Positions 233 to 53,642 of a stretch of DNA of 64,000 nucleotides are shown piece by piece. The translations under genes were made by a program, and so were the position numbers. Numbering within the stretch: the first letter of the stretch is position 1; each line of letters opens with the position of its first letter. Under the pieces are notes generated by a model. It saw only the letters and a program-made list of their open reading frames with translations. It had not been told where the DNA came from and searched no databases. The stretch comes from Escherichia coli (GTDB taxonomy: Bacteria > Pseudomonadota > Gammaproteobacteria > Enterobacterales > Enterobacteriaceae), in NCBI RefSeq assembly GCF_024223415.1, contig NZ_CP100500.1. The stretch is one strand, 5' to 3'.

Positions 233-613
233 GTTTTATGTCCTTTGCAATATTTTGAATTCACCCCTTTTGAGAGGGCGGTCAGGCGCTCAAAACCGTG
301 CAAAGTCGGCGGGCGTATTTCCCTTACGGGTATTGTATTAGCCTCACGCCCGACCATTGAATTCTCAATATCGTGGACATAAAAAATCCGCATGTCTGTC
401 GGGTGCGGTTTCCGCTTTGCAAGGTGTTTTGAGCACCATGACGCGGAATATAGCCCCGTTAACGCGACATTGTCAAACTGAAGAATTTTACGGATAGCAA
501 AAACCCCCGAACTGGTGAGGAACAGGGGTTTTTACTTTACTACTGATTTCGCGGTACGCTGATCTCAAACAGACGAGATTATCACCAGACTTGTAAAGTA
601 AGCAATGGGCGGA

Positions 614-1357
614 TTAAGATGAAGCGTTCGCTATCTGAGCGTCGCTGAATGTGAAACCCGCCTGTTTAAGACGCTGGATTAAGCGGGGTACTGTCTCCCG
701 AACATGGTCATTAAAGTTGAGATAAAGAATACCGGCGGCATCAGAAGGCTGCTCAAGGTGTTGTTTCTGCAGGATGACCACGTTACTGCGACCGAGTGAA
801 GATAACAGCATCCCCATTTCTAAAACTACGTTTTGGCGTGCCCTGGGCTGGGCTGCTTCCTGGCCGTCTCTTTTGGCGTATCCCACATCATCGGGAGTGA
901 GGAGAACAATGCCGAAACGCGTCGCTGTCCGTCCCTGACCAATTTCACGTTCAAGCTCTTCAATTATCGTAAGCCCGGTCCCACCGGTATTCTGCAAAAT
1001 AAAATGGTCAGGTAATCCAAGCTTATGAAGAATAAGTTCAAGCTGCTCTTTTGCTACATGATCGTGACCGTGAACGATGAAAATCTTTTTTGCTGGTTCT
1101 TGCATCATGACTGGAGCGTTACCCAGGTGTTCATTAATAATGGCTTCAACCTCAGGTTTTGCCGCTTGTGAACCCTGAATCAAAATCGTTCCGGTGTGGT
1201 AAAGCGTTATGATGGCACCATTACTTAAACGATAACAATCATGACCGGTTTTGTTTTCTTCTCCGGTAACATCAAATCCGGATTCGACTAAAAATTGACG
1301 AAAAGTATCGACAGCGTATGGGTATTTGAGTGCCATTTCATTGAGTTCCTGCATCAT
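614..1357 (-). CDS. Two-domain protein: unknown ~85-aa N-terminal domain plus C-terminal TIR-like domain (FIVHGHD ... LLTPDDVG ... RARQNVVLEMG ... LGR motifs, as in the CAP12/PycTIR-type TIR-like family). Candidate defence/abortive-infection effector
   Basis: 247-aa ORF; motif pattern recalled from the predicted nucleotide-binding TIR-like family; gene is bracketed by an exact 15-bp direct repeat and followed by a hairpin with T-tract. Confidence 0.5.
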   Translation of the reverse strand: MMQELNEMALKYPYAVDTFRQFLVESGFDVTGEENKTGHDCYRLSNGAIITLYHTGTILIQGSQAAKPEVEAIINEHLGNAPVMMQEPAKKIFIVHGHDHVAKEQLELILHKLGLPDHFILQNTGGTGLTIIEELEREIGQGRTATRFGIVLLTPDDVGYAKRDGQEAAQPRARQNVVLEMGMLLSSLGRSNVVILQKQHLEQPSDAAGILYLNFNDHVRETVPRLIQRLKQAGFTFSDAQIANASS

Positions 1358-1410
1358 TGTGTTCCTGTAAAGTAAGCAATAGTTAACAAAGTTGCAACGA
1401 CAACGATCAC

Positions 1411-3477
1411 CTAATCTTTTCTGTAACGGTACGCCTCGAATCCTCCGGCGTTTAGTGGAATGCTCGTGGCCCAGTCAGGAACGGTTGCCAGTAACTGGCT
1501 GAGATGTTCTGCTGAGTAATCGGGTGAGTCAGGGGCCTCACTTATAATTTCATCGTGTACCGTCAGCACAATGCTGTAACCGGCATCTTCGATAAGCGGC
1601 ATGTTTCCGGCCAGAACGTCGCGGGCGGCCGCCTGGGTGACGTTCTCCACCAGCTTTCCGCCGTAGGTTTTGAGTCGTTGCCATTTACGCGAATAAGAGT
1701 TAACACCCATATAGGTGATATCCCCTTTTTCGATAACCGGAGACGGGTAGCATACAGCGCGTCCGGATGGTAGCTGTATGCGCAGCCACGCGCCATCGCG
1801 GCGGATTTTAAGATAACCGCAATACAATGTTTTTTGCGGTGTGGCGATTGCAGTGCGGACGGTGCGCTCCAGTTCGTACCAGAAATCGCAGGTCGCCGGG
1901 TGCGCCCTGCGCCACAGGCGCTTGAGCGAGTCACATGCGATGAATACACGCTCGGACAGGCCAAAGGTCGACTTACGTTTAACCGATTCGTCGTACCAGC
2001 TTTTCGCCTCGCGGATAACATCGCGGGGAATGTTTGGCAGTGCGGCGTTCGCCAGCTCGTCGAGATCGAGACCGTAAACCAGAGCAAAAGTGATGAAAGC
2101 CGATACACCACCTCCATAACCCAGACCGAGTTCCATGACTTTACCGATCTGACGCATGTGTTTATCAACATCATCTGGTGCAATATCGAAAGCTTTTGCA
2201 TACGCCAGTTTATATAAGTCCGGACCCGTTCCGGCGTCGTACTCTCTGAATGCATTCAGTTTCCATTCTTCTCCCGCCAGCCATGCCAGCATACGGCCTT
2301 CAATGTTCGACAAGTCACTTACCACCAGTTTTTTGCCTGTTGGCGCGATAATGCAGCCACGTAACGCTGAACTGGTTAGTTCCATGATATTGTCAAACAG
2401 CAGGTCTGCACATCCGGCTTTCAGTGCTTCGATGCCTTCGTCTATTTGTTCCTGTTTTAGTGAAGGGCGGGGAAGGTTCTGGGGCTGGAATAGCCGTCCG
2501 GCCCAACGACCGGTACGTGACGCCCCGCAGAACTGTAGCGTACCGCGTAAGCGCCCGTCGTGGCTTACGCCTTTCATCAGTGCCTTGTATTTACTGGTGC
2601 TGGTAGTACTGGCCTGCAGGCGGATAGCCAGCAGTTCTTTCACGGCAGATGGTAAATTGGGGTCGGCAATACGACGTTCCAGAGTACTGCGTTGCATGTC
2701 TGGTAGCTCCACACCGTAGGATTCAACAATGTGCTTAATCAACGCGTCCCGTTGTGTGGCTGCCTGCACTTCGCCATCAGTCATTTCCTGTGTACGCTTT
2801 GCCAGGCGCTTTTGCTCCTGGTCTACCGCTTCGATCGCAGCGCGCGCGAGTTGAATGTCCATGCAGACGCCCCGGTCGTTGATCTGCTGATCACGATGCC
2901 AGAGTGCCAGTTCTGTCCCCTGATAATTCCACTTCGGCAGACGTTTATAGACTTCGCGCATTGCCTCGATATCCAGTCCGGCGTAAGCAACAAAGCGCCG
3001 CCATTCTTCCGGGTGGGTTTTGCTGGTGGCCCGGCGCAGTTTGCTGTTTTTCGGGCGTGGTTTGCACAGTAGCTGAATTAGTGACTTGCCTTCTTTATCC
3101 TTCGCTTTGTCCTGCGGGACGCCCAGCACTTCGCAAAGAGCGCCCAGCGCCCCCGGAAGACCATGCGCCAGCGCCTGCACCATTGTGTCGCGCCAGCGTT
3201 CAGTAGCTGGTGACATGTCTGGCATACAATGACGAAGTATCGTGCGGTCAAAGTGCGAATTGTGCGCCCAAACCTCCACATCCGGGTTTTTGAGTGCGAG
3301 ACGTAATTCCGGGGGGATTTTTTCGCCTGCGGTCAGGTCCCACACCTGCACGGGATCGTTATTGATGGCCCAGGCAAAAAGCATAATTTCAGCGCCTTCT
3401 GCATATGCGTGGGTACCGTTTTTTATCGGTATTTCAGAGAAGGTTTCAAGATCGAGCCAGAGAATGTTTGCAGGCAA
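1411..3477 (-). CDS. Phage family-A DNA polymerase with N-terminal DnaQ-like 3'-5' exonuclease
   Basis: 688-aa ORF; exonuclease motif LDLETFS near the N-terminus; polymerase motifs [16 protein letters not shown] (motif B-like K...YG) and VHDEI (motif C-like). Confidence 0.85.
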
Positions 3478-3546
3478 AACAGGACCCTCCGTAAATTAAA
3501 CGGCTACAAAAAGCCCCTGACAGTGCAGGGGCGGGATTGATTTGAA

Positions 3547-4311
3547 TTAACGAGGTAAGGCTGGTGGAATGTATCTGCCGATGCGGTCTTCTATGGTCGG
3601 CAGAATGCACATGCTGTCGCTGAAGCGGTCATGCAACTGGTAAACCAGTTTAGAATCCATTTTTTCGAGAGCAGGCATTAACTGCGCCCGCCAGATTTCG
3701 TTGATGCGCCGGAAGTTATGACAGACGGCGCGGAGATTGTTGATGAACATTTCCTTCTCTGCGTCAGTGACTTCTGTCTGTGTTTTCTGAATACGCTTTG
3801 TGCTGCCATTCCGATAGAAGCGTTCCTGAGCAGCAACAGCCTCATCCACGGTTGGATAGCACCCTACGTAAACGCTCTTCTCTCCGTTCCATGCGTAGGC
3901 TCTGTACGGGTTGTATTTGCTCCGGTGATGGTAAACCATCTTCGGCAGACACTCCCTGTGTGGCGCCAGTATCGTGGAGGATTGCTGGTGCAGTTTGCGT
4001 TCGCACTCGATGAAGTATCGGCGGATCTGGCGGCCTTTTTCGTTGCGCTCCACCATCGCCAGTTCTTTGGCCGTGTCGAGGGTGAGGTGGTAGTCCTTAC
4101 AAAGAACATTTTTACGCTTTCCAGTTTTGGAAAACGTTACGATATAATCCTGATTTTCAACGAATTCATAGTCTGCAATTCGTGATGTAATCCACGCTGC
4201 AAACACTTTCCCTACCCCAAGGAATGCGTGCAGATCGCGAGCATTGCAGAGCAGGGTGGTTTCGTTGGCGATAGCGCCGTTGAAAACGGGGATGAGTTGA
4301 GTTGCCATCAC
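3547..4311 (-). CDS. Protein with AntA/AntB-type antirepressor N-terminal domain
   Basis: 254-aa ORF; N-terminal LIPVFNG ... LHAFLGVGKVFAAWITSRIADYEFVENQDY ... YHLTLDTAKELAMVERNEKGRQIRRYF resembles the AntA/AntB antirepressor domain. Confidence 0.55.
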   Translation of the reverse strand: MMATQLIPVFNGAIANETTLLCNARDLHAFLGVGKVFAAWITSRIADYEFVENQDYIVTFSKTGKRKNVLCKDYHLTLDTAKELAMVERNEKGRQIRRYFIECERKLHQQSSTILAPHRECLPKMVYHHRSKYNPYRAYAWNGEKSVYVGCYPTVDEAVAAQERFYRNGSTKRIQKTQTEVTDAEKEMFINNLRAVCHNFRRINEIWRAQLMPALEKMDSKLVYQLHDRFSDSMCILPTIEDRIGRYIPPALPR

Positions 4312-4469
4312 AGTTACCTCTAACGGTGAAATTCACCGCCACCACTGAGTTGCAAATCTCATATGGGTGGCGAACTGACGAGGTTTGCAATACCGGCGTT
4401 AGAGGAAACCGGCGCGCCGAAGCGCCCCCGCCAGCCCGCCATAATGCGAACGTGGCAAAGCTTGCGACA

Positions 4470-4500
4470 ATAAAAAAGACGCTGGCGCGTCTGGTGTCGC
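4470..4500 (-). terminator. Rho-independent terminator-like hairpin downstream of the DUF2815 gene
   Basis: On the minus strand, AGACGCGCCAGCGTCT hairpin followed by TTTTTTATT (plus-strand aataaaaaagacgctggcgcgtct). Confidence 0.5.
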
Positions 4501-4691
4501 CCCTAACAATTCCGGGTTGCAAATCCCGATCTCCATTTGGGAGATTCGGTGAGCATAAACCGGAAGGGGGCGATGAGTCAATATCGGGGTAGCAGGGCGA
4601 CTGGGTGCTAACCAGAACAATACAGGTAGCTCCGGGCATATTCCCCTTTGCAAAAACACCCGGCGTTTAACCGGGCGTCTGTGAAGCAGGA

Positions 4692-5240
4692 TTAAATCAG
4701 TGCTTCAGCATCAGCACCTTCGCTGATATCGTCGAAATCGTCAGCGCTTGCCACTCCGCCGCCAGCGAATGCATCGCCGTCTCGCAGGAACTGGACTCCG
4801 CCGAGTGAGGCATTAATGCGTTTACCGAAATTATTGTCCTGTGCCCAGATATCGATAACGGCGTTTACATAGCACCCTGCATAGGGACGTCCATCAGCCT
4901 GAGTAAGTGGCGAACGATCGCGATCAAGAACAGCCGGGCGCGCTTTGTTAGCAGCATTCAGGAAGAAATTACCGGGGAAACCTTCATACTCTGCTTTTTC
5001 ATCGCCGTCATGCAGGCACAGATTGAGTTTCTTCTCCAGTTGGTTATAAACAGCCTCCCACTTCTCTCCCCATTTTTCCTTTGCGACCTGCTTCATTGCT
5101 TTACGGATTTCTTCCAGTTGTGGGTGTTCGGGAGACATTAAAAATACAGCGGAGAAACGCGGATCGCCTTCGCCGTTTACAGTTTTAGCTTCAAACAGCG
5201 CAGGAAAAGCCAGACGAACATTGTTCAGCTTCAGTTTCAT
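4692..5240 (-). CDS. DUF2815-type phage protein (putative ssDNA-binding protein of the PolA/DUF2800 replication module)
   Basis: 182-aa ORF starting MKLKLNNVRLAFPALFEAK, acidic C-terminal tail; adjacent to DUF2800-like gene as commonly seen in phages. Confidence 0.55.
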   Translation of the reverse strand: MKLKLNNVRLAFPALFEAKTVNGEGDPRFSAVFLMSPEHPQLEEIRKAMKQVAKEKWGEKWEAVYNQLEKKLNLCLHDGDEKAEYEGFPGNFFLNAANKARPAVLDRDRSPLTQADGRPYAGCYVNAVIDIWAQDNNFGKRINASLGGVQFLRDGDAFAGGGVASADDFDDISEGADAEALI

Positions 5241-5255
5241 TATATGTCTCCTTAA

Positions 5256-6560
5256 TCAGATGAGGTCAGCGGCGAGCGCGTCGTCGGACACGTCATCGAA
5301 ATCATTTACAGGGTTAATATTGAGTGCGGGGCGCGGATCTGAATCAGGAACGACGGTGGGTTTACCGTCCGCTCGTGTTATCAGGGCCTCGACTTTTGGC
5401 CAGCGGCGCGGACTGGCTTTTTTGATGAGTTTTTCTGCTTTGGCAGGGCTAATCAGTTTAAAGTCGAAAACTTCTTCAGTTTTATACCTGAACTGATCCT
5501 TCAGAAGAGCTCGAGCTGCTTCCTCATCACTCCAGGTCCGGTTACCTTGTTTTCCTGTTACCAGTTTAAACCCCGGTACCGTATGCCCGGCATGGAGTTC
5601 ATTGTGAACCCGGTCACGTAGCGCTTTGCAAAAAGACTCAATCAGGTCAACATGGCTGTAAATGTCTGCCAGTTGTTCAGCGGTCAGTAGTGGTACACGC
5701 TTAACGGCATCTGCGAGTTGCTCGCCAACGGGTCTGCTCAGGTCAACGAAGTCGTCCGCAACGGCGTTAAGTCTGGCCTGTGCTTCTGCTGAACACAGCC
5801 CACCTTTTGCTTTACAGAAGAGGCACTGTTTCTCGCCTGGTGTGAAGTTTTCAGGTGGCAGGGTTTCGACGCCTTCGCAATCGGCGATGTTGAACATCAC
5901 GATCACACTGGCGGCAGCTTCCTGCGCCCGTTTGCCGAATGCCTGCAGTTCCTCCACCGTCAGGGACCACTCTGAAACGTGGTTAATCCGCGGCTGGTGG
6001 ATGAACAGGCGCACCGTCTCGAAGTCGTACAGAAGGCTGAACTGCTCGAGCACGCCCAGGGCATACAGCTGCAACTGCTCGTTCTGCTCAGCGTCGACAC
6101 GCACTCCCTTACCGTATTTCAGGTCGTGGATCTGCAGTTCGTTACCCGCGATGATTATGCAGTCGGCAGTTCCGAAAGAGTCTTCCACACCGACGATGTG
6201 GGAGAAGTCTACGCGTTGCTCAACCAGCAGCGTGTTGCCCTGTGCCAGTGACCAGACTGTATCAACATACCGGCCAACGGCTTCGACCATTTCCTCATCC
6301 ACCTGTGGGCCAGATGTATCATCAGGATTTGCGCGAAGGGGGTATGAGCCGAGAAACATAGAAACATTGCATCCGGCGTAGTGTTCCGGGTGACTTTGCC
6401 TGTTTCGCAGGACTTTTTCTGCAAGCGCGTGCGCCGCAGTACCTTCAACAGCAAAGGATGTTTCTTTGTCAGGCTGAGTGGACTCCAGCGCCAGACTGCC
6501 GCTACAACGCATCCATCTGTGGGCGGCTGATGGAGATAATTTTGCATGAACCTCGGGCAT
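5256..6560 (-). CDS. DUF2800-type PD-(D/E)XK nuclease-like phage protein
   Basis: 434-aa ORF; N-terminal [15 protein letters not shown] motif typical of DUF2800; C-terminal cysteines ([11 protein letters not shown]). Confidence 0.6.
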
Positions 6561-6562
6561 AA

Positions 6563-7486
6563 TTAACCCTCCAGCGCTTTTTCAGCAAGGGCTATCACGT
6601 CTGCGAGTTTATCGTCAGCGACTTCACCGAGTTTTCTGGCTCCCTGTTTTTCCAGAATGGCAATAGCTTCTGCCCGGTAACCGCCTTTTGCAAGCTGGAG
6701 GATCAACCCTTCGGCCTGTTTACGCAGTGCAGCAAAATCGGTCTGTTCGCCAGTATCTTCCACGGCATCACCACCAGTTTCGGTACCGCTTTTTGCTGCG
6801 TCTCTGCGTGCAAATTCTTCCTGCAGCTGAAGGTACTCAACACGGTTGATCTCGATATGGCCTTTTTTCAGCATCTCGTTCAACTTGCGTAAGGTGTGGA
6901 GTTCACTGGCTGCTGTGCCGGATACATTTTTGACGTAAAACGGCCCCGTGCGTTCTCCATCTTTGTTACTGGCCTTTTTCGGCTTAACTTCATCACGCCC
7001 ATCTGCAGGTGCATCAAGTAGCTGCTCGGCAAAAGCACGTCGCTCGCCGATAGTTGGCAGGTCGTCCCAGAACTTAAGAATGTTGCGGGACAGGTCCAGA
7101 AGAGCGGGTTTATGCAGTGCCCTGGCTCGTTTGACGCACTGCAATGTGCTGTCGAGAGCATCAATCTGAACTACTCGTTTATCACCTTCAGCATCACGGT
7201 AAGCAACAGCTCGTTGCAGCATGTCTTCAGTAACAGGGGTAGCTGACGGGTAGAAACCAGCCAGTGCGATAACGTCGCTGAACTCCAGATCATCCAGTGT
7301 CATTACCGCTTTATTTTCAGTTTCATCTGCTGTTTCGGTTGCTGTATCCCGACATTCCTGTACTTGTGAAATGGCGTCAGGATGCATAACAATACCTGAT
7401 GCCATTGTGCGGATAAGACGTTCAAGCAGCACATTATGTTGCGCCAGAAGTTGGTTATTAAGTTCGAGACTGGTTTCTAAGCTCAT
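6563..7486 (-). CDS. Hypothetical phage protein
   Basis: 307-aa ORF, tightly packed in the leftward operon (ends 1 bp before the next gene); no motif recognised. Confidence 0.5.
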
Positions 7487-7665
7487 ACTGTGGTCCTCGC
7501 TACAAGGAGAATGAAAGTGATGATCAGGCCAAGTGCAGTGGCAACGACCAGACCTGTCATCAAATCGAAGTGTTTACGGCGATAACGGAGAACATCGCGC
7601 CCCGTCAGTCGATGGATGTGTTCAGGTTTCATCGGTTGTATTCCTTTTTTCATATCGGGGAGCAC
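7483..7665 (-). CDS. Small hypothetical protein with C-terminal hydrophobic helix
   Basis: 60-aa ORF overlapping the start of the downstream gene by 4 bp; C-terminus LVVATALGLIITFILLVA. Confidence 0.35.
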   Translation of the reverse strand: MLPDMKKGIQPMKPEHIHRLTGRDVLRYRRKHFDLMTGLVVATALGLIITFILLVARTTV

Positions 7666-7748
7666 GCTGTTGCGAGTGCGCTTTCAGACATAAAAAAGCC
7701 CGTCACTTGCGGCGGGCAAAGACTACACACAGCAATTACATGGATGAT

Positions 7749-7943
7749 TCAGTTGGTATTGTGCGTACGTGGTACCACGAGGTTGAAGCGGACACGCCAG
7801 TGCGTTGCAATGGTATGCAGGAAAGCACCACATCTAGGGCAGTGCTCATAACATTCGTTGATTTGGTATCGTTTTGGCTTTGGTGTCTGAAGTTGTGTTT
7901 GGCAAGCAGGGCATTCACCTTTGAGCGGTTTATACGTTTTCAC
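7749..7943 (-). CDS. Small zinc-ribbon-like hypothetical protein
   Basis: 64-aa ORF with CPAC ... CPRC cysteine pairs. Confidence 0.35.
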   Translation of the reverse strand: MKTYKPLKGECPACQTQLQTPKPKRYQINECYEHCPRCGAFLHTIATHWRVRFNLVVPRTHNTN

Positions 7944-8224
7944 GCCGTTTCCTCATTCAGTTCACTTTGGTGGTTCGGCGGCTTCGACTTGTATCAGTAG
8001 ACAGTGCTTCGCCGCACCCCAAAGGGAACTTACTGACCCGTATTGCCGACATCCTGTCCCGCCACGGTCCCGACGCATGGTTTAGAGTCGCGCCGTTCGA
8101 CTTGATGAGGGATAAATTACTATGTTTATTGTATTACGTAAACCACAAATATGGTATTTATGGTTGCAAAAATACCATATTATTGATATTTAAGTTAATT
8201 TAGTTGGTAGACAATCGGGGCGGG

Positions 8225-8262
8225 CGGTATGGCGGGAGGGCTTTTTCGCCCTCTTTCTGGAT
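8225..8262. terminator. Hairpin GAGGGC-TTTTTC-GCCCTC with T-rich flank just downstream of the cI-like gene
   Basis: Inverted repeat read directly in gggagggctttttcgccctctttctgg. Confidence 0.4.
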
Positions 8263-8266
8263 GGGA

Positions 8267-8893
8267 TTATCTTTTGCGGCGGTAAATACGATGTTCAATC
8301 ATGACCCCTACGATCTGTAAGGGGACATCTGCACTTCGTAGCACGGGATAGTCGGGATTCAGGGGGACCAGTTCAAAATCATCAACGCCGATACCCAACG
8401 GGCGGTATTTTTTGAAAGTGGCCTCATACCCGTTGTTCTTTGCAACGACGAATTCGCCAGGCATGGGGCATAAATCCGGGTCAATTATTACAATATCGCC
8501 TTCCTTAAACTCCGGTTGCATACTGTCACCATCTATCCGCAGGGCGAAGCAGGACTCAGGTACGTCGGAATCCGCGAGAACGTATTCCATATTTCCATCC
8601 ATGTCCGTAGCGTCTTTTGCTTCCGTTAGCGCACCGGCCTGTACGTAACTGAGGATCGGGATGCGGCGGGTACTTATTTCCGCCAGGGGCATTATATTCC
8701 TGCCATTTAAAAGCCAGTCGGGACTGCATTTCAGTGCCTTTGAAAGCTCTATGATGTTGCGGGGCTTCCGGGTCTTTCCGCTTTCAATAGTCTCAATGGA
8801 TTGCTGGCTGACCCCCGCGATTGCTGCAACTTCTGTTTGTGTCATCCCGAGTTCTGTACGGCGTGCTTTAAAGCGTTCTGCAAGTGACATGGT
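8267..8893 (-). CDS. cI: cI-like prophage repressor (XRE-family HTH plus S24 LexA-like peptidase domain)
   Basis: HTH GMTQTEVAAIAGVSQQSIETIESGK and peptidase region LRIDGDSMQPEFKEGDIVIIDP; start taken at MSLAERF (AGGGGG RBS) rather than the ORF-track start at 8956; divergent from the cro-like gene. Confidence 0.85.
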   Translation of the reverse strand, partial: TMSLAERFKARRTELGMTQTEVAAIAGVSQQSIETIESGKTRKPRNIIELSKALKCSPDWLLNGRNIMPLAEISTRRIPILSYVQAGALTEAKDATDMDGNMEYVLADSDVPESCFALRIDGDSMQPEFKEGDIVIIDPDLCPMPGEFVVAKNNGYEATFKKYRPLGIGVDDFELVPLNPDYPVLRSADVPLQIVGVMIEHRIYRRKR

Positions 8894-9006
8894 GTACCCC
8901 CTGATTCCTGATTTTTTGCTCTCCCTTATTAATACAATTTTTGTTGTAGTTGACAAACATCATTTATTGTCGCTAAATACCACATAAATTGTAGGAGACA
9001 ATAATC
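8894..9006. promoter_or_regulatory. Divergent cI/cro intergenic control region (oR/pRM/pR analogue)
   Basis: 113-bp AT-rich spacer between divergent repressor genes containing ACCACA-type half-site repeats (taccacataaattgtagg) also seen left of cI. Confidence 0.5.
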
Positions 9007-39477: not shown

Positions 39478-41292
39478 ATGGCGGCTGTAAAAATTTCAGG
39501 CGTGCTGAGGGACGGAACCGGAAAACCGGTACCGGGATGCATTATTGAGCTGAAAGCGAAGAGAACCAGCGAGACAGTCATCGCCACGACAGTGGCTTAT
39601 GGCATGCCGGAAGAGACGGGGAGTTACAGTATGGATGTGGAGCCAGGAATATACAGGGTGACACTCAATACAGAAGGTTACCGTCCTTCGTATGTGGGAG
39701 ATATCGTGGTCAGGGAGGATTCTTCACCGGGAACACTGAATAAATTTCTGATGGAGATGGAAGATGCTCCTTATTATCCGAAGGCGTTGTCAGAGCTGGA
39801 GGCTGTGGTGCAGTCCATACTGCACAGAGCAGAGTCCGCGGCATCTGAGGCGGAGGAAGCCCGGAAACGAGCAGCATCTGCCCGGGGACCACGAGGAGAG
39901 AAAGGGGATACCGGCGCTCGTGGTGAAAGAGGCATTACCGGGCCACAGGGGCCAAAAGGTGAAACAGGAGCACGTGGCCCGGCAGGACCACAGGGACCAA
40001 AAGGTGAAACAGGTGAACGCGGTCCGGCAGGTCCACAGGGACTAAAGGGCGATACAGGTGAACGCGGCCCGGCAGGTCCACAGGGACCAAAGGGTGAAAC
40101 AGGTGCACGCGGCCCGGCAGGTCCACAGGGAGCAAAGGGCGAAACAGGTGAACGCGGCCCGGCAGGTCCACAGGGAGCAAAGGGCGAAACAGGTGCACGT
40201 GGTCCGGAAGGCCCTCAGGGTCTGAAGGGAGAAAAGGGTGAGCGAGGAGAAAAAGGCCCTAAGGGGGATAAAGGAGATCCGGGAGGTCCACAGGGACCAA
40301 AGGGGGATACAGGTGAACGCGGCCCGGCAGGTCCACAGGGATCAAAGGGCGATACAGGTGAACGTGGCCCGGCAGGTCCTCAGGGACCAAAGGGGGATAC
40401 AGGTGAACGTGGCCCGGAAGGTCCACAGGGAGCAAAGGGTGAAACAGGTGAACGCGGCCCGGCAGGACCACAGGGACCAAAAGGTGAAACAGGTGAACGC
40501 GGTCCGACAGGTCCACAGGGAGCAAAAGGTGAAACAGGAGCACGCGGTCCGGCAGGTCCTCAGGGACCAAGAGGAGAGTCAGCCCGTGGACAACTGCTGA
40601 ATGGTGATCTGAACCGACTGGGACGAGTGACCGATCAGGGTGATTATTATCAGCCATCAGACAGTGGGGCTACACGAGAAAATAATTATCCGATTCAGAG
40701 AGCGGGTTATCTTCAGGTAAGAGTTGGTGCATGGGGATATTGCCAGCATGAATATACAACCTGGAACCCACCACGAAAGTTCGTAAGAACTGTTACTGGT
40801 AATTTTACCGGTAATGGCCCCTGGTCTGAATGGAAAGAGCTGGGAGCCCAGGGGGAGCGTGGTCCACAGGGACCAAAAGGTGAAACAGGTGCACGCGGTC
40901 CGGCAGGTCCACAGGGACTAAAGGGCGAAACAGGTGCACGTGGCCTGGCAGGTCCTCGGGGGCCAAGAGGGTATACAGGTGAACGCGGCCCGGCAGGTCC
41001 ACAGGGGCCAAGAGGAGAAGCGGGGCGGCCAGCGAGCGTCGGAAGTGTTTATTCCGTGGGGTCTTATGTTCTGGGGATCATAGAACGAAATCATGAGATA
41101 ACAAATACCCGTCAAATACCCGGGTATCGTATCAGACAGGCCGTTATTGTGTCGTCGTCATCGGATAAACTTACAGATATCCGCTTTTTATTTGGCAATC
41201 CTATGCTTGGTACATGGATGTTATGCACAACTAACATGACGGTGAATAATATCAGTGGGACGATTTGGGGCCTGTTTCAGAGAATACTGTGA
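39478..41292 (+). CDS. stf: Side tail fibre protein (Stf-like N-terminus) with long collagen-like Gly-X-Y repeat region
   Basis: N-terminus [18 protein letters not shown] resembles lambda Stf; two blocks of GXY triplets ([19 protein letters not shown]...). Confidence 0.8.
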
Positions 41293-41307: not shown

Positions 41308-41883
41308 ATGAAGGTCGATAAAATCACGTCACCAGTGTGGGCTGACAGGGGTCATACGACCATAAACTGTATAGTGAAGTTTTCAGACGCGGAAACAGAA
41401 TGTGTATTTACAGCAAGTGCGGATGATCCTGAGTCTTACGGTCGTGAAATATTTGAAGCCTGCATAAGAGGTGATGCAGGGCCGGTAGGTGAGTACCGGG
41501 CAAATGATGATATGGCTGTGGAAGAAGCACGCAGGATGAAAAACGCGGAGATAAATGCCTGGCGTGATGCGATGGAGGCGTCAGGGTATGTTTTTGAGCA
41601 CAGAGGACGGAAATGGGATTATGGAAAGGAAACCATGACACGTCTTGGAATGTCGGCATCAGCGGCCAGAGGCGGTGTGTTGCCGGAAGGATTTTTCTGG
41701 ACGGACGCAGAGAATAATGATGTACCGATGACGGCAGATGAACTGATATCCCTGAGTGATGCTGCTGGTAAAGCGATGTTCAGGAAAGGCCTTGAAATAC
41801 ATATAAGGCAAAGGGAGATGAAAAAGGCAATAGCAGAACTGAGTGACAGTGAAACCATTCTGGCGTACAGGGTTGGATGGTGA
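41308..41883 (+). CDS. tfa: Tail fibre assembly/chaperone-like protein
   Basis: 191-aa ORF immediately after the fibre gene; assignment by position and weak similarity. Confidence 0.45.
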   Translation: MKVDKITSPVWADRGHTTINCIVKFSDAETECVFTASADDPESYGREIFEACIRGDAGPVGEYRANDDMAVEEARRMKNAEINAWRDAMEASGYVFEHRGRKWDYGKETMTRLGMSASAARGGVLPEGFFWTDAENNDVPMTADELISLSDAAGKAMFRKGLEIHIRQREMKKAIAELSDSETILAYRVGW

Positions 41884-41892
41884 AACTGATAA

Positions 41893-41930
41893 AAAAACCC
41901 CTCTGAAAATTCTGTCAGAGGGGTGTAGTC
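41893..41930. terminator. Hairpin CCCCTCTGA ... TCAGAGGGG flanked by an A-tract upstream; likely end of the late operon
   Basis: aaaaaaacccctctgaaaattctgtcagaggggtg read directly. Confidence 0.4.
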
Positions 41931-42321
41931 AATAAGGGAATAATATTCAACATGAAGATGTCTTCTGGGAATGTTTACATAGCAAATGCTTTCACTCCGG
42001 TAATTAATTTCTGTGATTAACTGCTTTCGATCAATAAAGGAATTGCAAAAAAGGTGAACTGATTCACAATTGAGTCTGTGATGAATGTAGACTGATGTAG
42101 GAAACGGTTATTCTGACAGCTATATCTGAATGCTCTGCTGACATATGGGGACAAGAACGCTCATATTGTTTTATCGGGGTGCATTTATCCTATAATTCCA
42201 TGTTAACTGTATTGATTGTTAAAATCAATGCAGTGGTGACTCTGAAAGGTATCCTGGAAAAGAATCTCGCCTGCTTATTCAGGGGGGGTTACAGTTTAAT
42301 CTTCTTAACAGGATATACCAT

Positions 42322-43731
42322 ATGAAATTTATAATGGCAAAGAATGTATTGGCAATGGCGGTTACCGGTGCGCTGTTATGTTACTCTGTGGGGGTTATGG
42401 CAGAAGAGAGTTTTAATGTAGATGGATATGAGGTTACTCTGTATGATAATGGTGCGGCAGTAATATCAAAAGGTAATGATGTTAATCTTATTAATACTAT
42501 TACTGGAGCTAATACAGGGCGTATTGTCCCGAATGATTCTATTACGCGTGCTATATTAGCAGCTCCTGAGAATGCTAGGCATATTGTTGCTCAGGATTTG
42601 CTAACTTACCCCATCTACTCAGATGCATTAAAAGCCGAAAACATCAGAAATATAAAAGCAGAAGATATAAAGTCCATTGTTGATACAAAAGAATCACTAC
42701 AAAAAATAATCAAGCCAGAAAACAAGGATGATTATATCGCCGCTGTTAATGCTGGTGGTACCGCTGAGGATTTTATTAAAATTAGTAATACAACATCGGG
42801 ATTGTCATCATTGTATAAAAATGTAGTTGAAGGCCAGAATTTTGTTCTGGATTCATCAGGCCGAATCACTGCTGACGGAAGGGCTGACGGAAATGCTCAG
42901 ACAGTCCCTGTTAAAGAATTCGTCGTGGAGCTGGATAATCGTACCCGCAACCTTGGGGTTGAAGTGAAATCACAGGGAGACAGTCTGCGTGGTGAGATAG
43001 GTGGTGTATACAGAGATGCCCGTGCTCATACTGACAGTCAGGTCACAGCAGTACGTGATGAACTGAAGGCAGAGGGAGACAGTCTGCGCGGTGAGATAGG
43101 CGGTGTATACAGAGATGCCCGTGCTCATACTGACAGTCAGGTTACAGCAGTACGTGATGAACTCAGCAGGGATATTATTGCAGGCACATCGGCAGCGGTG
43201 GCGTATACGGATGCATCTTCTCTTGCTCTTCAGGATGAAATAAAAGAAAAAGCGGATGAAACAGTTCAGGTTTCCCGGGCTTATACAGATAAAAGTGTAC
43301 GGGATGCCCGTAAAGAAGCGAAAAGCCAGGCAGAACATCTCAGCGATGTGCTTGTGAAGAACAGGGCGCAGACGGATGCAGCAATAGCCTCAAATACAGC
43401 AGCGATAAGGAATAACAGTCATCGTCTGGATTTGACGGAAGCCTGGCAGAAGATGGCGACAGAGAGAATGAATAATATGCAGGAGCAGATTAAAGAGAAC
43501 CGGAAGGAGTTAAGGGAGAGTGCAGCCCAGAGCGCGGCACTGGCCGGTCTTTTCCAGCCATACAGTGTTGGAAAATTTAACGCGACAGCAGCCGTTGGTG
43601 GTTACCGTGATGAGCAGGCCATTGCGGTGGGCGTGGGCTACCGTTTCACAGAGAATGTGGCAGGAAAAGTTGCAGTTGCTGCAGGTGGGTCATCCGCATC
43701 GTGGAATGCTGGTGTGAATTTTGAGTTCTGA
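42322..43731 (+). CDS. Trimeric autotransporter adhesin-like protein (YadA-like C-terminal anchor); resembles prophage-encoded Eib immunoglobulin-binding proteins
   Basis: Signal peptide; coiled-coil stalk with 33-aa tandem repeat; C-terminal anchor [10 protein letters not shown] ... [20 protein letters not shown]. Confidence 0.7.
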
Positions 43732-43791
43732 CAGGTCAGGATTTAGATATCTGTCCCGGGGGAGTCCCCCGGGATATAATGAGGTACAGAG

Positions 43792-44247
43792 ATGCTGGAT
43801 ATAATCCTGGCGACGAGAGATATTTATTTTGAAAAAGCCCTGCGAGAGATATTTGGAACCGTAAGCAGTCGAATCAGATATATAGAAGATGCCATATCAG
43901 ACAGAAGAAGGGTGCAGTCAGGCAGGTCATTCAGATATTATTTTGTATTCTGTGATGATGAGTATACAGATATTGTTCGTATTCTTTTTACCGGAGAGGC
44001 CTGCTGTATTCTGAATAAGTCGATGCTGAATCTGAGAGCGGCCGGAGGTGTGTTGACGCTGGAAGAGCGCAGAGCGGTACTGAACCGGTATTACAGAGGT
44101 TTAAGTATTGCGGAGATTACAGAAGAGACGGGGCAGAATGACAAGACGGTATACGGTCATCTTCGTCGTGCACTGCAGCGGTCTGGATTCCGGAAGGGGC
44201 GTTTTATAAAGGGGAGAGAAGCTGCGGGGGATTCAGGTGTTGAATAA
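43792..44247 (+). CDS. Putative LuxR/GerE-type HTH transcriptional regulator
   Basis: C-terminal LTLEERRAVLNRYYRGLSIAEITEETGQNDKTVYGHLRRALQ fits a LuxR-type HTH. Confidence 0.4.
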   Translation: MLDIILATRDIYFEKALREIFGTVSSRIRYIEDAISDRRRVQSGRSFRYYFVFCDDEYTDIVRILFTGEACCILNKSMLNLRAAGGVLTLEERRAVLNRYYRGLSIAEITEETGQNDKTVYGHLRRALQRSGFRKGRFIKGREAAGDSGVE

Positions 44248-44358
44248 TGTATCTTATATTGTGATATCGGTGCTGCTGCTGTTATTTTTTGTTGTATTTG
44301 TGACGAATGGTTAAGAATAAAACATGAGTTGGTGATTATCAGGACAGGTTGCTTGTAT

Positions 44359-44454
44359 ATGAAGATAACAAAGGCGGCATTTATTTTTGCGCTGTCAGTG
44401 TGGAGTGTTGCTGTGATATGTCTTTTATTATTTGTACTGGTTGTTCTGGGATAG
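44359..44454 (+). CDS. Very small hydrophobic peptide (31 aa), possible small membrane protein
   Basis: Own translation MKITKAAFIFALSVWSVAVICLLLFVLVVLG in an AT-rich spacer. Confidence 0.2.
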   Translation: MKITKAAFIFALSVWSVAVICLLLFVLVVLG

Positions 44455-44630
44455 CTATAGTGGAATTATTATTTTTTTAAGACTATGGTTTATATTTTTA
44501 TTCGGCAATATTTCTGTAAACAATTAAATATCAGAAAGGCGTGTTGTATGCGTGAACACGCCTGAGTATGTATACAGAGATTGTTAATTTGGAGAGAATA
44601 ATTACAGTTGTTATTTATTTGACGTCCTGA

Positions 44631-44879
44631 TTAGTGAAAAAACCAGTCATCAGCAGTTTCCCAGACTTCCTGCAGCGTTTCCTGTATGAACTTCTGAGCG
44701 TTTTCTTTATCTACGGCTCTTAAAATTGTCAGTCCGTCATTACTGGCGGATTTTACTATAACCTCCACATCGTCATATCGTTTTCTGATACGGCGAGACA
44801 TTTCCTGTTGTAGAGCAGGTACAGAGCCTTTTGGCATTTTGCTGAATTTTTCTTTAGCGATACAGATCTCAATACGCAT
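44631..44879 (-). CDS. DinI-like protein (prophage-encoded DinI family)
   Basis: [35 protein letters not shown] ... [14 protein letters not shown] resembles E. coli DinI as recalled. Confidence 0.7.
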
Positions 44880-45184
44880 AAAAGTCCCTCTACACTGTGT
44901 TTGTATACAGTATTATTTTTAACTGTATGGATAAACAGTGTCAAGGTTTTCAATTTCGAAGCGGGAGTCAAGGGCTTTGTGTTGCTGAACTTATGCAAAA
45001 TTTTTTTGCATCATAAATCCAACAACACATTCAATAACACATTACTGCATAACCATGAAAATAAATGTATTTTTATTTAATTTCACACATATCACAATTG
45101 ATGCATTTTTTAGTGATTAACAGCGCCATAAGGAAACTCTCAAAACAACACAAACCGGGCGGGCATTATACGCGCATTCTTTAC

Positions 45185-46033
45185 TCAAACCAGTTTTTTC
45201 ACCAGTGCCTCGCTGTGACGAATGCGCTCAGGGGCCAGTTCGAGATCCTGCTGGATTAGCGCAATGAACAGCAAATCTGTAAGCATTCCCTGAGCGTGAC
45301 AAGCGGAGATCGACGCACTATTCGTCGCCTGTTCTTCGGCAATAGTATACAGGCAATGGGATGCTCGTTGTTGCAGAGCATTCGGCGTGAAACCGGTAAT
45401 TGCCAGCACCTTTCCACCCACGCGCAGCATCTCATCCGCCGCGAGATTCAACTCACGTCGTACACCAGTGTAAGAGATGGCTAATAACAGATCGTCCGGT
45501 GAGGATGCCTGTACAGTAGCGAGCAACGCATGCATATCGCGTTCTGCGGCAGCATTGAAACCAATCTTCATCAGTTTCCAGGCAAAGTTTTGCGCTACCA
45601 GACCCGAAGCGCCAATGCCAGTCAAAATAATCCGCCGTGCAGAACGCAACATCACCACGCATTCATGTAATTTCTCTTCACTGTTAACGTTCAGTGTCGC
45701 ATACATGGCAGCCGTGTTTTCTTTTATGAGCTTTTCACCCACCAGTCGCAGCGGATCATCACCGCGAATTTGGTTATGAATGGGGACAGAAGGGGATTCC
45801 GGCTGGCTCGCCAGAGCTTCGCTTAACGCGAGTTTTAAGGCAGGAAAACCTTTATAGCCGAGTTTTTGCGCGAACTTCACGACGCTGGACTGACTGACTC
45901 CGGCTTCGTTGGCCAGTTGCTGAGAGCTTAAATGGCGCGCCGTATCAGGTTGTAGCAGCAGATAATCCGCCAGTTTTTTATCACTCTGGGCAAGCCCCTG
46001 GTAACGCTGACGGATACGAAGTAAGCCGTTCAT
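45185..46033 (-). CDS. yfhH: RpiR-family transcriptional regulator (HTH plus SIS domain), YfhH-like
   Basis: HTH SQQLANEAGVSQSSVVKFAQKLGYKGF and SIS-domain region; conserved neighbour of pgpC/tadA; start taken at MNGLLRIRQ. Confidence 0.85.
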   Translation of the reverse strand: MNGLLRIRQRYQGLAQSDKKLADYLLLQPDTARHLSSQQLANEAGVSQSSVVKFAQKLGYKGFPALKLALSEALASQPESPSVPIHNQIRGDDPLRLVGEKLIKENTAAMYATLNVNSEEKLHECVVMLRSARRIILTGIGASGLVAQNFAWKLMKIGFNAAAERDMHALLATVQASSPDDLLLAISYTGVRRELNLAADEMLRVGGKVLAITGFTPNALQQRASHCLYTIAEEQATNSASISACHAQGMLTDLLFIALIQQDLELAPERIRHSEALVKKLV

Positions 46034-46241
46034 ATCTTTCCTCGCGATGAAATAGTGGCGACAACAGGCAATATGAGACACACGCGAGTGAATTTTATAT
46101 TCCATTGCCGCTAATTGCCATGAATTAAAAATTCCAGTTAGCCATGATGCGGTCGATTGTTGCCGGAAAAGTGATGATCTATCTGTTAGGCTATGTAGTA
46201 GCGAAAATTAATCAGGATGTTTCAGTCCAGAGGAGTATGGT

Positions 46242-53456: not shown

Positions 53457-53642
53457 AGTGGCTCATTCACCGACTTATGTCAGCCCCTTCGGGACGTGCT
53501 ACATAAAATTCGAATGACGCACAACAAGGTGCCTGCCGTCCAACTTCTGATATCAGCGTAGCTATATCAACCATCGGGCGAAACGTCGAGTTAGGCACCG
53601 CCTTATTCCATAACAAAGCCGGGTAATTCCCGGCTTTGTTGT
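53457..53642 (+). ncRNA. glmY: GlmY small regulatory RNA
   Basis: Begins agtggctcattcaccgacttatgtcagcccc downstream of the sigma-54 promoter, ends at terminator aaagccgggtaattcccggctttgttgt; located between purL and glrK as in E. coli K-12. Confidence 0.8.

Follow-up and report, generated by a model that had tools for sequence, protein, structure and literature searches.

Two genes at the far right end of a lambda-like prophage of Escherichia coli, integrated in yfhL, probably form a moron cassette that consists of a trimeric autotransporter adhesin (type Vc) and a predicted DNA-binding protein of the ORF-156 family. The window analysed here is a stretch of 64,000 nucleotides (contig NZ_CP100500.1, assembly GCF_024223415.1), and all coordinates refer to it.

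A lambda-like prophage carries the cassette at its right end

Both open reading frames of the cassette are uninterrupted, that of the adhesin encoding 469 residues and that of the helix-turn-helix (HTH) protein 151. The features of the locus are as follows.

41308..41883, + strand: ORF-191 homologue (DUF4376, tail-fibre-assembly-like; Pfam DUF4376, E=2e-20)
41897..41924, no strand assigned: G+C-rich hairpin just 3′ of ORF-191 (hairpin scan)
42068..42960, + strand: low-G+C module of promoter-proximal region, signal peptide and head (allele comparison)
42322..43731, + strand: trimeric autotransporter gene, 469 residues, product identical to WP_254539394.1 ('YadA-like family protein')
42322..42402, + strand: Sec signal peptide, residues 1-27, cleavage after VMA (read from the sequence)
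42403..42966, + strand: head domain, residues 28-215 (~190 residues), without a Pfam family
42967..43551, + strand: coiled-coil stalk, residues 216-410 (recurring YTD/HTD motifs in the sequence)
42976..43164, + strand: 33-residue (99-bp) stalk repeat, two copies (TRF and copy alignment)
43552..43728, + strand: YadA-type β-barrel membrane anchor, residues 411-469 (PF03895, 2lme and EibD alignment)
43755..43773, + strand: intergenic hairpin CCCGGGGG-AGT-CCCCCGGG, without a T-run (sequence scan)
43792..44247, + strand: ORF-156-family protein, 151 residues, with a receiver-like N-terminal domain (~1-80) and an HTH (87-130)
44631..44879, − strand: DinI-like gene (Pfam DinI, E=2.3e-19)
45082, no strand: right prophage/chromosome junction, inside the 5′ end of yfhL (prophage-free genomes)

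The preliminary description of this DNA had placed the adhesin gene on a prophage, and this is borne out by the terminase, portal, major head, tape measure and J genes that lie upstream and by the junction in yfhL, ~1 kb from the cassette, where prophage-free E. coli genomes align at 99.9% from 45082 on and yfhL is annotated. Immediately upstream of the cassette are the genes for a collagen-like tail fibre and for the DUF4376 protein, the latter (191 residues, 59% identical to orf-191C of P-EibC) being the last virion-related gene ahead of it. Between the DinI-like gene and the junction there are no further prophage genes, and the same gene is also found 3′ of the cassette in other prophages. 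The locus had been called a virulence moron; position and low G+C content are consistent with the moron part of that term.

The hairpin at 41897..41924 follows an A-run and, on the + strand, is not followed by a T-run; on the − strand it resembles a terminator. Rfam returned no RNA families within 41800-45200, even at E≤1, and a scan for σ70 promoters gave 8 sites against 9.0 expected from shuffles; as there was no enrichment, we claim no promoter. A 29-bp imperfect palindrome at ~42206-42234 occurs in the window and in strain TUM9803 only.

The upstream gene encodes a predicted trimeric autotransporter

Sequence comparison confirmed 42322..43731 as an intact gene whose predicted product is a trimeric autotransporter, since a Sec signal peptide, a coiled-coil stalk ahead of the anchor and a 4-strand anchor, which are the marks of type Vc proteins, were all found in its sequence. 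The whole of the YadA_anchor model (PF03895) aligned with residues 411-469 at E=1.2e-16, scoring 61 bits where 22.7 is the cut-off; for 2lme, the solved anchor of YadA, E was 1.8e-17, and phrog_9547 aligned with residues 5-469 (E=5.9e-63). The signal peptide was read by eye, without a predictor, and has the n/h/c layout with V-x-A at −3/−1 and a cleavage site between VMA and EE; AGGA stands 8 nt 5′ of the ATG. Signal peptide, stalk, tandem repeat and anchor had all been described before and were all recovered, and neither of the two outcomes named beforehand as fatal to that description, a C terminus outside the YadA-anchor family or a disrupted gene, was found. A pseudogene was also considered and was ruled out by the integrity of the reading frame and its domain content.

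From the signal peptide through head and coiled-coil stalk to the 4-strand anchor, the layout is shared with YadA of Yersinia. The NCBIfam model YadA_autotrans matched residues 309-468 (E=1.6e-18), albeit at 67 bits against a cut-off of 750 bits for YadA proper, and by Pfam the window adhesin has neither YadA_head repeats nor a neck. Moreover, its gene is borne on a prophage whereas that of YadA lies on a virulence plasmid.

The head is rare and appears to be exchanged as a unit

Database searches place the head in a rare family of N-terminal domains that appears only in short enterobacterial trimeric autotransporters. A word-indexed search of 5.8 billion proteins returned only six clusters, all of them near-identical fragments from E. 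coli. An exhaustive search gave nine matches at E≤0.001, and only there did the more distant relatives with a YadA anchor surface (P0021, 34% identity; P0023, 33%). Conserved motifs are visible in the family alignment, and the head DNA is present in only 2 of 5426 complete E. coli genomes.

Comparison of alleles indicates that promoter-proximal region, signal peptide and head form one exchange unit. Cassette DNA of any kind was matched in 218 of the 5426 genomes (~4%); most matches begin at the stalk repeat and extend through the downstream HTH gene, the start in most of those listed being query position 861 or 866 (window 42960/42965). From 42960 on, the DNA that the window has in common with alleles annotated 'YadA-like family protein' is 99% identical, and across alleles stalk, anchor and downstream gene are 95.5-99% identical to those of the window. 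In strain TUM1886 (WP_097740341.1, 515 residues) identity to the window is 95.5% over stalk and anchor and 99% for the downstream HTH protein; the DNA upstream of the adhesin is 96% identical over 41884-42067, and there similarity ends. The heads of this allele and of that in strain 24A16CRGN010 (WP_106652286.1, 546 residues) are unrelated to the window head, and their signal peptides and promoter-proximal DNA differ as well. The TUM1886 protein gave a weak, sub-threshold match to Pfam YadA_stalk (neck), and YadA-head-like SVAIG/SVALG repeats can be seen by eye in the 24A16CRGN010 protein. The module 42068..42960 has a G+C content of 36-40% against ~50% in the stalk.

The stalk repeat varies in copy number

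TRF reported a period of 99 bp with 2.1 copies over 42960..43163 and 93% matches. The well-matched copies (42973-43064 and 43072-43163) have three synonymous differences, and of the 33 residues encoded 30-31 are the same in both copies (G219-L248 = G252-L281), with differing flanks (KSQ/KAE and KAE/SRD). The repeat had been described as an exact 33-residue tandem repeat at 42975..43170; it is real and its coordinates were right to within a few bases, although exactness was slightly overstated. One copy is present in TUM9803 and P0020, two in the window and TUM1886 and three in 24A16CRGN010, and a 381-residue allele carries an additional deletion of 55 residues in the stalk. Hydrophobic residues in the repeat region recur with a period of 3.67 (11/3), a modest signal ~1.6 s.d. 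above the shuffle maxima. The 33-residue module would correspond to three hendecads, which suggests that copies could be gained or lost with the coiled-coil register kept. At ~0.15 nm per residue, each copy would alter the length of the fibre by ~5 nm.

Such rapid head swapping and length variation would also be compatible with an arms race. Exclusion and receptor-modifying morons, of the lambda lom/bor type, are common after tail-fibre genes, and the cassette is directly 3′ of such genes. The proposal that it serves the phage, with a dense layer of fibres on the lysogen blocking the adsorption of competing phages (superinfection exclusion), nevertheless strikes us as very improbable. The characterised relatives, Eib and YadA, target host molecules or function in contacts between cells (PMC12511318, PMC7568254).

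The adhesin resembles Eib proteins in its membrane-proximal parts

The window adhesin can be regarded as a fairly ordinary, uncharacterised relative of the Eib proteins that is without the parts defining that group. Eib proteins (EibA, C, D and E of the ECOR-9 prophages P-EibA/C/D/E; also EibF, G and H) are, like it, prophage-borne short trimeric autotransporters, and eibA/C/D/E occupy the same slot as the window gene, with an ORF-401-like tail fibre, ORF-191, the adhesin and then an ORF of ~155 residues. The BLASTP comparison that had been proposed, run against EibA/C/D/E, gave only 34-39% identity, over a C-terminal stretch of 213-346 residues according to the Eib compared. Against EibD, the anchor has 44 of 59 residues identical (75%) and the membrane-proximal coil (the last 34 residues of the stalk, the left-handed coil of EibD) 17 of 34 (50%). 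The likeness to Eib noted at the outset therefore stands for slot, anchor and membrane-proximal coil, but fails for the saddle, the upper left-handed coil and the head.

A saddle with a left-handed coil is common to all Eibs (PMC12511318). By alignment, the Eib saddle (TTVGV..DGKLTRAEGA..) is absent from the window adhesin, the aligned segment having 6 of 35 residues identical to EibD, so that the complete module of saddle, left-handed coil and anchor was not found; the upper left-handed coil and the right-handed coil of Eib could not be aligned with the window stalk, which, unlike Eib, has a variable 33-residue repeat. The Eib N-terminal domain was likewise not found: hhalign of the head family against Eib N-terminal domains gave a probability of 2.5% (no homology), and YadA_head, the YadA-like β-roll, was unmatched in the window head by Pfam.

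Could the adhesin still be a true Eib, the stalk of which binds IgG Fc and/or IgA non-immunologically and confers serum resistance? The shared slot and the 75% and 50% identities speak for this, as do two relatives with the same head, P0023 and P0026, which have an Eib-type saddle motif. Residues 329-344 of EibD reportedly bind IgA and residues 384-418 IgG; the window adhesin has only 6 of 35 identities to EibD 384-418, with a 10-residue gap. Besides the missing saddle, no significant match to the adhesin was found among the sequences of EibD crystal structures in the PDB. Antibody binding in EibD has been mapped to two regions of the stalk (PMC7247746, citing Leo 2011). Since saddle and upper left-handed coil are missing and the head is unrelated, antibody (Fc) binding is not supported by our comparisons, and we judge a genuine Eib protein distinctly unlikely. 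As a side observation, P0023 also has the left-handed coil and anchor, and P0026 is a sequence of 258 residues that ends at the start of the saddle.

The downstream gene encodes a remote homologue of ORF-156

Profile and alignment evidence identifies the 151-residue protein as a remote homologue of ORF-156, the gene for which is found 3′ of every eib gene. ORF-156 (orf-156A/C/D/E of the P-Eib phages) is uncharacterised and has the same position, size and predicted two-domain layout as the window protein, together with the motifs ILATR..Y.E in the N-terminal part and LT..E...YR...E.G...KTV..L in the HTH, and an invariant Asp after strand 3. Identity is only 22-26%, and the window protein has a 15-residue deletion in the linker. 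A BLASTP search with the HTH protein gave no ORF-156 match at E<1e-3, and the relationship is visible only by phmmer, profiles and alignment. A profile built without the window protein scored it at 27.2 bits (E=2.9e-7), where the best of 2000 shuffles reached 9.8 bits; the family alignment has eight invariant columns.

Residues 87-130 matched Sigma70_r4_2 (E=2.2e-7; 30.9 bits, cut-off 25.7), the window protein being the only branch of the family with an HTH that passes a Pfam threshold. GerE/LuxR (PF00196) was unmatched in the window protein by Pfam at E≤0.01 and at E≤1, and of 28 family members scanned only one reached E=0.056 for GerE. Single-sequence AlphaFold2 was unusable (pLDDT 37); with an alignment of 28 sequences it gave a model (pLDDT 79) of β-α repeats followed by a three-helix HTH, a predicted fold that would comprise a truncated receiver domain plus a LuxR/σ4 HTH. 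The earlier term LuxR-type regulator would hold at the level of the modelled fold only, whereas at the level of sequence the match is to Sigma70_r4_2.

Databases name such proteins 'sigma-70 family RNA polymerase sigma factor', and Sigma70_r4_2 does exceed the Pfam cut-off. However, region 4 alone was matched and region 2 was not, all NCBIfam sigma models scored 16-21 bits against cut-offs of 43-222, and the N-terminal half is an α/β domain rather than a helical region 2. On this domain content we rejected a sigma factor, which we consider extremely unlikely.

The best full-length structural matches were NarL/FixJ (LuxR-type) regulators (RcsB, FixJ, EvgA and StyR), which have the domain order predicted for the window protein, a receiver-like α/β domain followed by a GerE/σ4-type HTH; atypical NarL/FixJ members that lack phosphorylation are likewise among the closest known proteins. 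In contrast to theirs, the predicted receiver of the window protein is truncated to ~80 residues (four strands), and neither the strand-5 lysine nor an acidic pair following strand 1 is present. In place of that pair the family has the consensus T-R-N; assignment as a receiver therefore rests on topology and one invariant Asp (D55). No gene for a partner kinase was found near the HTH gene among the ORFs of the window.

The two genes are linked on different replicons

The gap between adhesin and HTH gene is 60 nt; it holds the hairpin at 43755-43773, and GAGG stands 7 nt before the ATG of the HTH gene. Four more of the clusters sampled have an ORF-156-family gene 83-88 nt 3′ of a YadA_anchor gene (one on a plasmid, two on other prophages and one at a contig end), and the same arrangement with YadA-anchor genes occurs in four P-Eib phages. 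This conserved pairing on different replicons supports an association of the two genes.

Three members of the family have no adjacent autotransporter. Their neighbours are hpaBC (PerC nearby), genes for type VI secretion and kpsF capsule genes, and an IS (PerC nearby); tblastn at the P0060 loci L007, L009 and L010 found no remnant of an autotransporter. Moreover, essentially the same HTH allele (99% identical) is joined to entirely different promoter-proximal modules in the window and TUM1886, and a search for an operator common to these two modules gave only 9-10-mers at chance level. One HTH allele with unrelated promoters, and the solitary members, make it less likely that the adhesin promoter has a dedicated operator. 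The earlier suggestion that the HTH gene may control the adhesin thus gains from the pairing conserved across replicons, but has to be set against the three solitary members and the lack of a common operator in the modules compared.

The same observations bear on whether the HTH gene is unrelated to the adhesin and has hitch-hiked as a horizontally acquired general regulator of host or phage genes. The solitary members and the mixing of one allele with unrelated adhesin promoters would fit this, as would the canonical stem and T-run terminators that separate both genes in Eib-type loci, where the window has a hairpin without a T-run. Against it, the order of YadA-anchor gene, hairpin and ORF-156-like gene, together with their spacing, is found again on a Rep3 plasmid and on prophages integrated at several different sites, and linkage persists despite divergence to 20-26% identity for the HTH protein and 34-39% for the adhesin. 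Linkage retained through such divergence suggests selection for the pair, and we regard hitch-hiking as somewhat unlikely.

Proposed mechanism and implications

YadA-type anchors form a trimeric barrel through which the passenger is threaded. After Sec export, three C-terminal segments of four strands would accordingly build a 12-strand barrel that threads the passenger of the window adhesin. The displayed passenger would be a trimeric coiled-coil stalk of an estimated ~30 nm, capped by a head of uncharacterised fold; with a mature chain of 442 residues, the predicted trimer has a mass of ~135-140 kDa. By analogy with short enterobacterial trimeric autotransporters, the most likely function of the adhesin would be to make the lysogen adhere and autoaggregate, and possibly to render it serum-resistant. 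The HTH protein would be a small cytoplasmic DNA-binding protein with a truncated, probably non-phosphorylatable receiver-like domain; its gene is probably co-transcribed with the adhesin gene by read-through of the hairpin without a U-tract, and we infer that it acts as a transcription factor on the cassette or on host genes.

Trimeric autotransporters encoded on prophages modify the cell surface of the E. coli lysogen and with it aggregation, adherence and the evasion of complement, and such genes are scored as virulence-associated in STEC and APEC genomics. The present locus shows that an eib slot and a YadA anchor are insufficient to name a gene an antibody-binding protein, and that cassette DNA in E. 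coli comes with interchangeable heads and one to three stalk repeats. If none of the readings discussed here holds, the locus would be one more uncharacterised adhesin moron.

A more far-reaching reading, which we offer tentatively and think rather unlikely to hold in all its parts, is that the ORF-156 family, the window protein included, is a long-missed cis-encoded regulator of eib-type genes within a mobile, self-contained module of adhesin and regulator, in which heads bring their own promoter-proximal DNA, 33-residue units are shuffled and the window head is a new ligand-binding domain. If so, the module would move between prophages and plasmids, and its interchangeable heads and stalk units would serve to retarget the fibre and alter its length. 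Regulation of Eib has been described as complex and unresolved (PMC5450701), and the conserved downstream gene of the ORF-156 type, encoding a predicted DNA-binding protein, provides a concrete hypothesis for it.

A YadA-anchored autotransporter beside the right prophage end

The preliminary description of this locus was confirmed in its observation and supported in part in its interpretation. From its sequence, the locus is predicted to be a prophage moron coding for a YadA-anchored trimeric surface fibre, with the following features.

39478..41292 (+): collagen-repeat tail fibre, which with the DUF4376 protein forms the next upstream genes
41308..41883 (+): DUF4376 protein (191 aa), between tail fibre and adhesin
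42068 to 42960 (+): variable module (promoter-proximal DNA, signal peptide and head)
42322..43731 (+): adhesin ORF, 469 codons, uninterrupted
43755-43773 (+): intergenic hairpin, an 8-bp G+C stem followed by GAGG and the HTH ATG
43792..44247 (+): HTH protein ORF, 151 codons
44631..44879 (-): DinI-like gene, downstream of the cassette
45185..46105 (-): yfhH, on the chromosomal side of the junction

The adhesin ATG has AGGA 8 nt 5' of it, and the protein begins, as had been proposed, with a typical Sec signal peptide (cleavage before EE, read from the sequence). The final 59 residues of the protein cover Pfam YadA_anchor end to end (E=1.2e-16, 61 bits; cut-off 22.7 bits) and match 2lme, the solved anchor of YadA, as well (E=1.8e-17). 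With the anchor matched and the gene undisrupted, the description of an intact autotransporter with a YadA-type C-terminal anchor holds. The adhesin belongs to a known group, the prophage-borne short trimeric autotransporters, and its existing annotation is generic: the identical protein in NCBI, WP_254539394.1 ('YadA-like family protein'), is on one 5.56-Mb contig only.

Lambda-type terminase, portal, major head, tape measure and J genes lie upstream of the cassette. The tail fibre has a phage_tail_N domain and then long collagen-like GXY repeats (Pfam Collagen E=5.6e-48, six stretches), which are broken by a globular insert. From 45082 onward prophage-free E. coli genomes match the window at 99.9%, which makes the cassette the final cargo ahead of the prophage's right end; this prophage/chromosome junction falls in the 5' end of yfhL, a ferredoxin gene. 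The cassette also occurs in sister prophages integrated elsewhere, near yodB/zinT and near ompW/yciE.

The minus-strand early region of the prophage (612..8997) shows matches to stretches annotated as DNA polymerase and DUF2800 protein; its closest relatives are only ~88% identical, and at the corresponding place they hold SIR2- and TIR-domain (defence-like) genes. An ORF in the early region (5256..6557) matches the phrog_69 exonuclease, and a C4 antisense RNA (4363..4446, minus strand, 70.6 bits) adjoins isrK (4472..4545, minus strand, 50.9 bits), a P1/P7-type antirepressor-control RNA pair. Prophage DNA near the window's left end matches the sRNA-Xcc1 family (272..355, minus strand, 79.8 bits; gathering score 53). 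The GlmY sRNA (53457..53604, plus strand, 147 bits) is chromosomal, expected near purL/glrK, and unrelated to the cassette.

Relationship to the Eib proteins

The ECOR-9 prophages P-EibA, P-EibC, P-EibD and P-EibE have the same gene order as the window: ORF-401-like tail fibre, ORF-191, eib, stem-loop and ORF-156, an uncharacterised ORF. ORF-191 and its 191-aa counterpart in the window have 57-59% identity. By BLASTP, however, the adhesin is only 34-39% identical to EibA, EibC, EibD and EibE, and the match is confined to a C-terminal stretch whose length varies with the Eib compared (213-346 residues).

Identity of the adhesin to EibD by region
Anchor: 44/59 identical; conserved
Coil, EibD 419-452: 17/34 identical; conserved
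Coil, EibD 384-418: 6/35 identical; 10-residue gap
Saddle region, EibD 349-383: 6/35 identical; saddle absent

Published work describes a characteristic N-terminal domain in Eibs, with saddle and left-handed coil common to all (PMC12511318), and maps EibD antibody binding to two stalk regions (PMC7247746). Unlike the Eibs, the window adhesin has no saddle; its head contains no YadA_head repeats (Pfam), hhalign detected no homology between this head and the Eib N-terminal domain (probability 2.5%), and a PDB search with the adhesin matched no EibD crystal sequence. Lacking these likenesses, the adhesin is a counterpart of the Eibs in position and a relative at the level of the anchor. It does not have the sequence features by which the group is defined, and no inference of antibody binding can be drawn for it. 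The resemblance to Eib proteins originally noted extends to the slot, the anchor and the membrane-proximal coil, but not to the saddle or the head.

Head and stalk modules

Megablast found matching DNA in 218 of 5426 complete E. coli genomes, and most listed matches start at window 42960/42965 and take in the HTH gene at 99% identity; DNA of the head was found in just two of the 5426, at ~97% identity. The first 184 bp after the ORF-191 homologue are 96% identical to the allele of strain TUM1886 with no similarity beyond, which places the start of the variable module at ~42068. G+C is 36-40% in this module versus ~50% in the stalk. Other alleles bear unrelated heads on the same stalk: that of strain 24A16CRGN010 has YadA-like SVAIG/SVALG repeats, seen by eye, and the TUM1886 protein has a sub-threshold match to Pfam YadA_stalk (neck). 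When 1.8 billion representatives were searched exhaustively, only a handful of relatives of the window head turned up, of which those bearing an anchor are short enterobacterial autotransporters (33-34% identity), some with an Eib-type saddle. Unrelated heads on one stalk, and head relatives with a saddle, indicate that heads, stalks and anchors are shuffled among these prophage proteins.

TRF reported a 99-bp tandem repeat of 2.1 copies at 42960..43163, the two good copies having three nucleotide differences, all synonymous. The protein has the 33-residue period previously described, but the repeat is not exact, 30-31 of 33 residues being identical between copies. There is one copy in TUM9803 (436 aa) and in the related protein P0020, which is without 55 further stalk residues, two in the window and TUM1886, and three in 24A16CRGN010 (546 aa). 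Within the repeat the hydrophobic residues follow a 4-4-3 spacing, and the best hydrophobic period over residues 203-285 is 3.67 = 11/3 (a modest signal, ~1.6 sd above shuffle maxima), which with the conserved EibD coil bears out a coiled-coil stalk. Since 33 residues are three hendecads, a copy can be gained or lost without disturbing the coiled-coil register, and each such change would shift fibre length by ~5 nm (~0.15 nm per residue). The predicted fibre is a rare head on a copy-number-variable hendecad stalk module, and its putative partner is a divergent ORF-156-family DNA-binding protein.

The HTH protein

Residues 87-130 of the HTH protein match Sigma70_r4_2 (E=2.2e-7, over the Pfam cut-off), and Pfam gave no GerE match. 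A sigma factor reading was rejected, NCBIfam sigma-factor models scoring far under their cut-offs. BLASTP detected no similarity to ORF-156; in alignment the two have a common N-terminal motif, ILATR..Y.E, and common HTH motifs, and a profile of 27 ORF-156-family sequences, the window protein left out, scored the HTH protein at 27.2 bits (E=2.9e-7; best of 2000 shuffles, 9.8 bits). AlphaFold2 on the family alignment (pLDDT 79) gave four beta-alpha units and then a three-helix HTH. Foldseek with the HTH-protein model returned FixJ at the top (E=8e-4), then RcsB and StyR (E ~8e-3 to 1e-2), and sigma region 4 domains too. These weak structural scores are consistent with a truncated receiver-like domain and a LuxR/sigma-4-type HTH, so that the earlier label 'LuxR-type' would be apt at the level of fold but not of sequence. 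D55, the Asp after strand 3, is invariant in the family alignment; phosphorylation nevertheless seems unlikely because the protein has neither the acidic pair that follows strand 1 nor the lysine of strand 5.

Transcription and linkage of the two genes

The hairpin between the two genes is followed by a T-run in Eib-type loci, making a canonical terminator, whereas the window hairpin has no T-run. Neither inspection by eye nor a promoter scan found a sigma-70 promoter in the 60-nt adhesin-HTH gap, and so co-transcription by read-through would be likeliest.

An imperfect 29-bp palindrome (42206..42234, plus strand; core ATTGATT-gttaaa-ATCAAT) lies ~90-115 nt upstream of the adhesin start, preceded by a perfect TATAAT (42191-42196) with a poor -35; it is in the TUM9803 allele and absent from TUM1886. 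A small ORF (44359..44454, plus strand), 112 nt after the HTH gene, encodes a nearly all-hydrophobic 31-aa peptide, MKITKAAFIFALSVWSVAVICLLLFVLVVLG. The peptide may belong to the cassette as its third member, a membrane peptide, or be there by chance; in P-Eib phages orf-60, with a single C-terminal hydrophobic helix, directly follows orf-156.

In the four P-Eib phages an ORF-156-family gene is 83-88 nt downstream of the YadA-anchor gene, and one follows a YadA-anchor gene at this same spacing in the prophages of P0044 and P0042, at the contig end of P0047 and on the Rep3/CcdAB/VapBC plasmid of P0057. The HTH protein might still be unrelated to the adhesin, acting on other genes and merely hitch-hiking beside it. 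We consider this rather unlikely: it would accommodate three family members without an adjacent adhesin, and the one HTH allele linked to unrelated adhesin promoter modules that have no motif in common, but it sits poorly with a linkage to YadA-anchor genes kept although both protein families strongly diverged. The stand-alone members (loci L007-L010 and L020-L025) are in chromosomal islands, after hpaBC with PerC near, beside IS with PerC near, or flanked by the type VI secretion genes ImpA/VasL on one side and the capsule-cluster gene kpsF on the other; they suggest that E. coli has a broader family of small regulators gained by horizontal transfer.

On the Rep3/CcdAB/VapBC plasmid (loci L011-L014) the ORF-156-family gene is preceded, in this order, by a YadA-type autotransporter of 1439 aa, an OmpA/BamE-like gene and a short Eib-like autotransporter with 60% identity to EibD.

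Published work ascribes eib activation to IbrAB, an island unlinked to eib (PMC7649339, citing Sandt 2002), and describes Eib regulation as complex (PMC5450701); our literature search, which did not reach the primary Eib papers, found no study of ORF-156. The most useful product of this analysis is a testable idea, that the ORF-156 family may be a cis-linked regulator of these cassettes.
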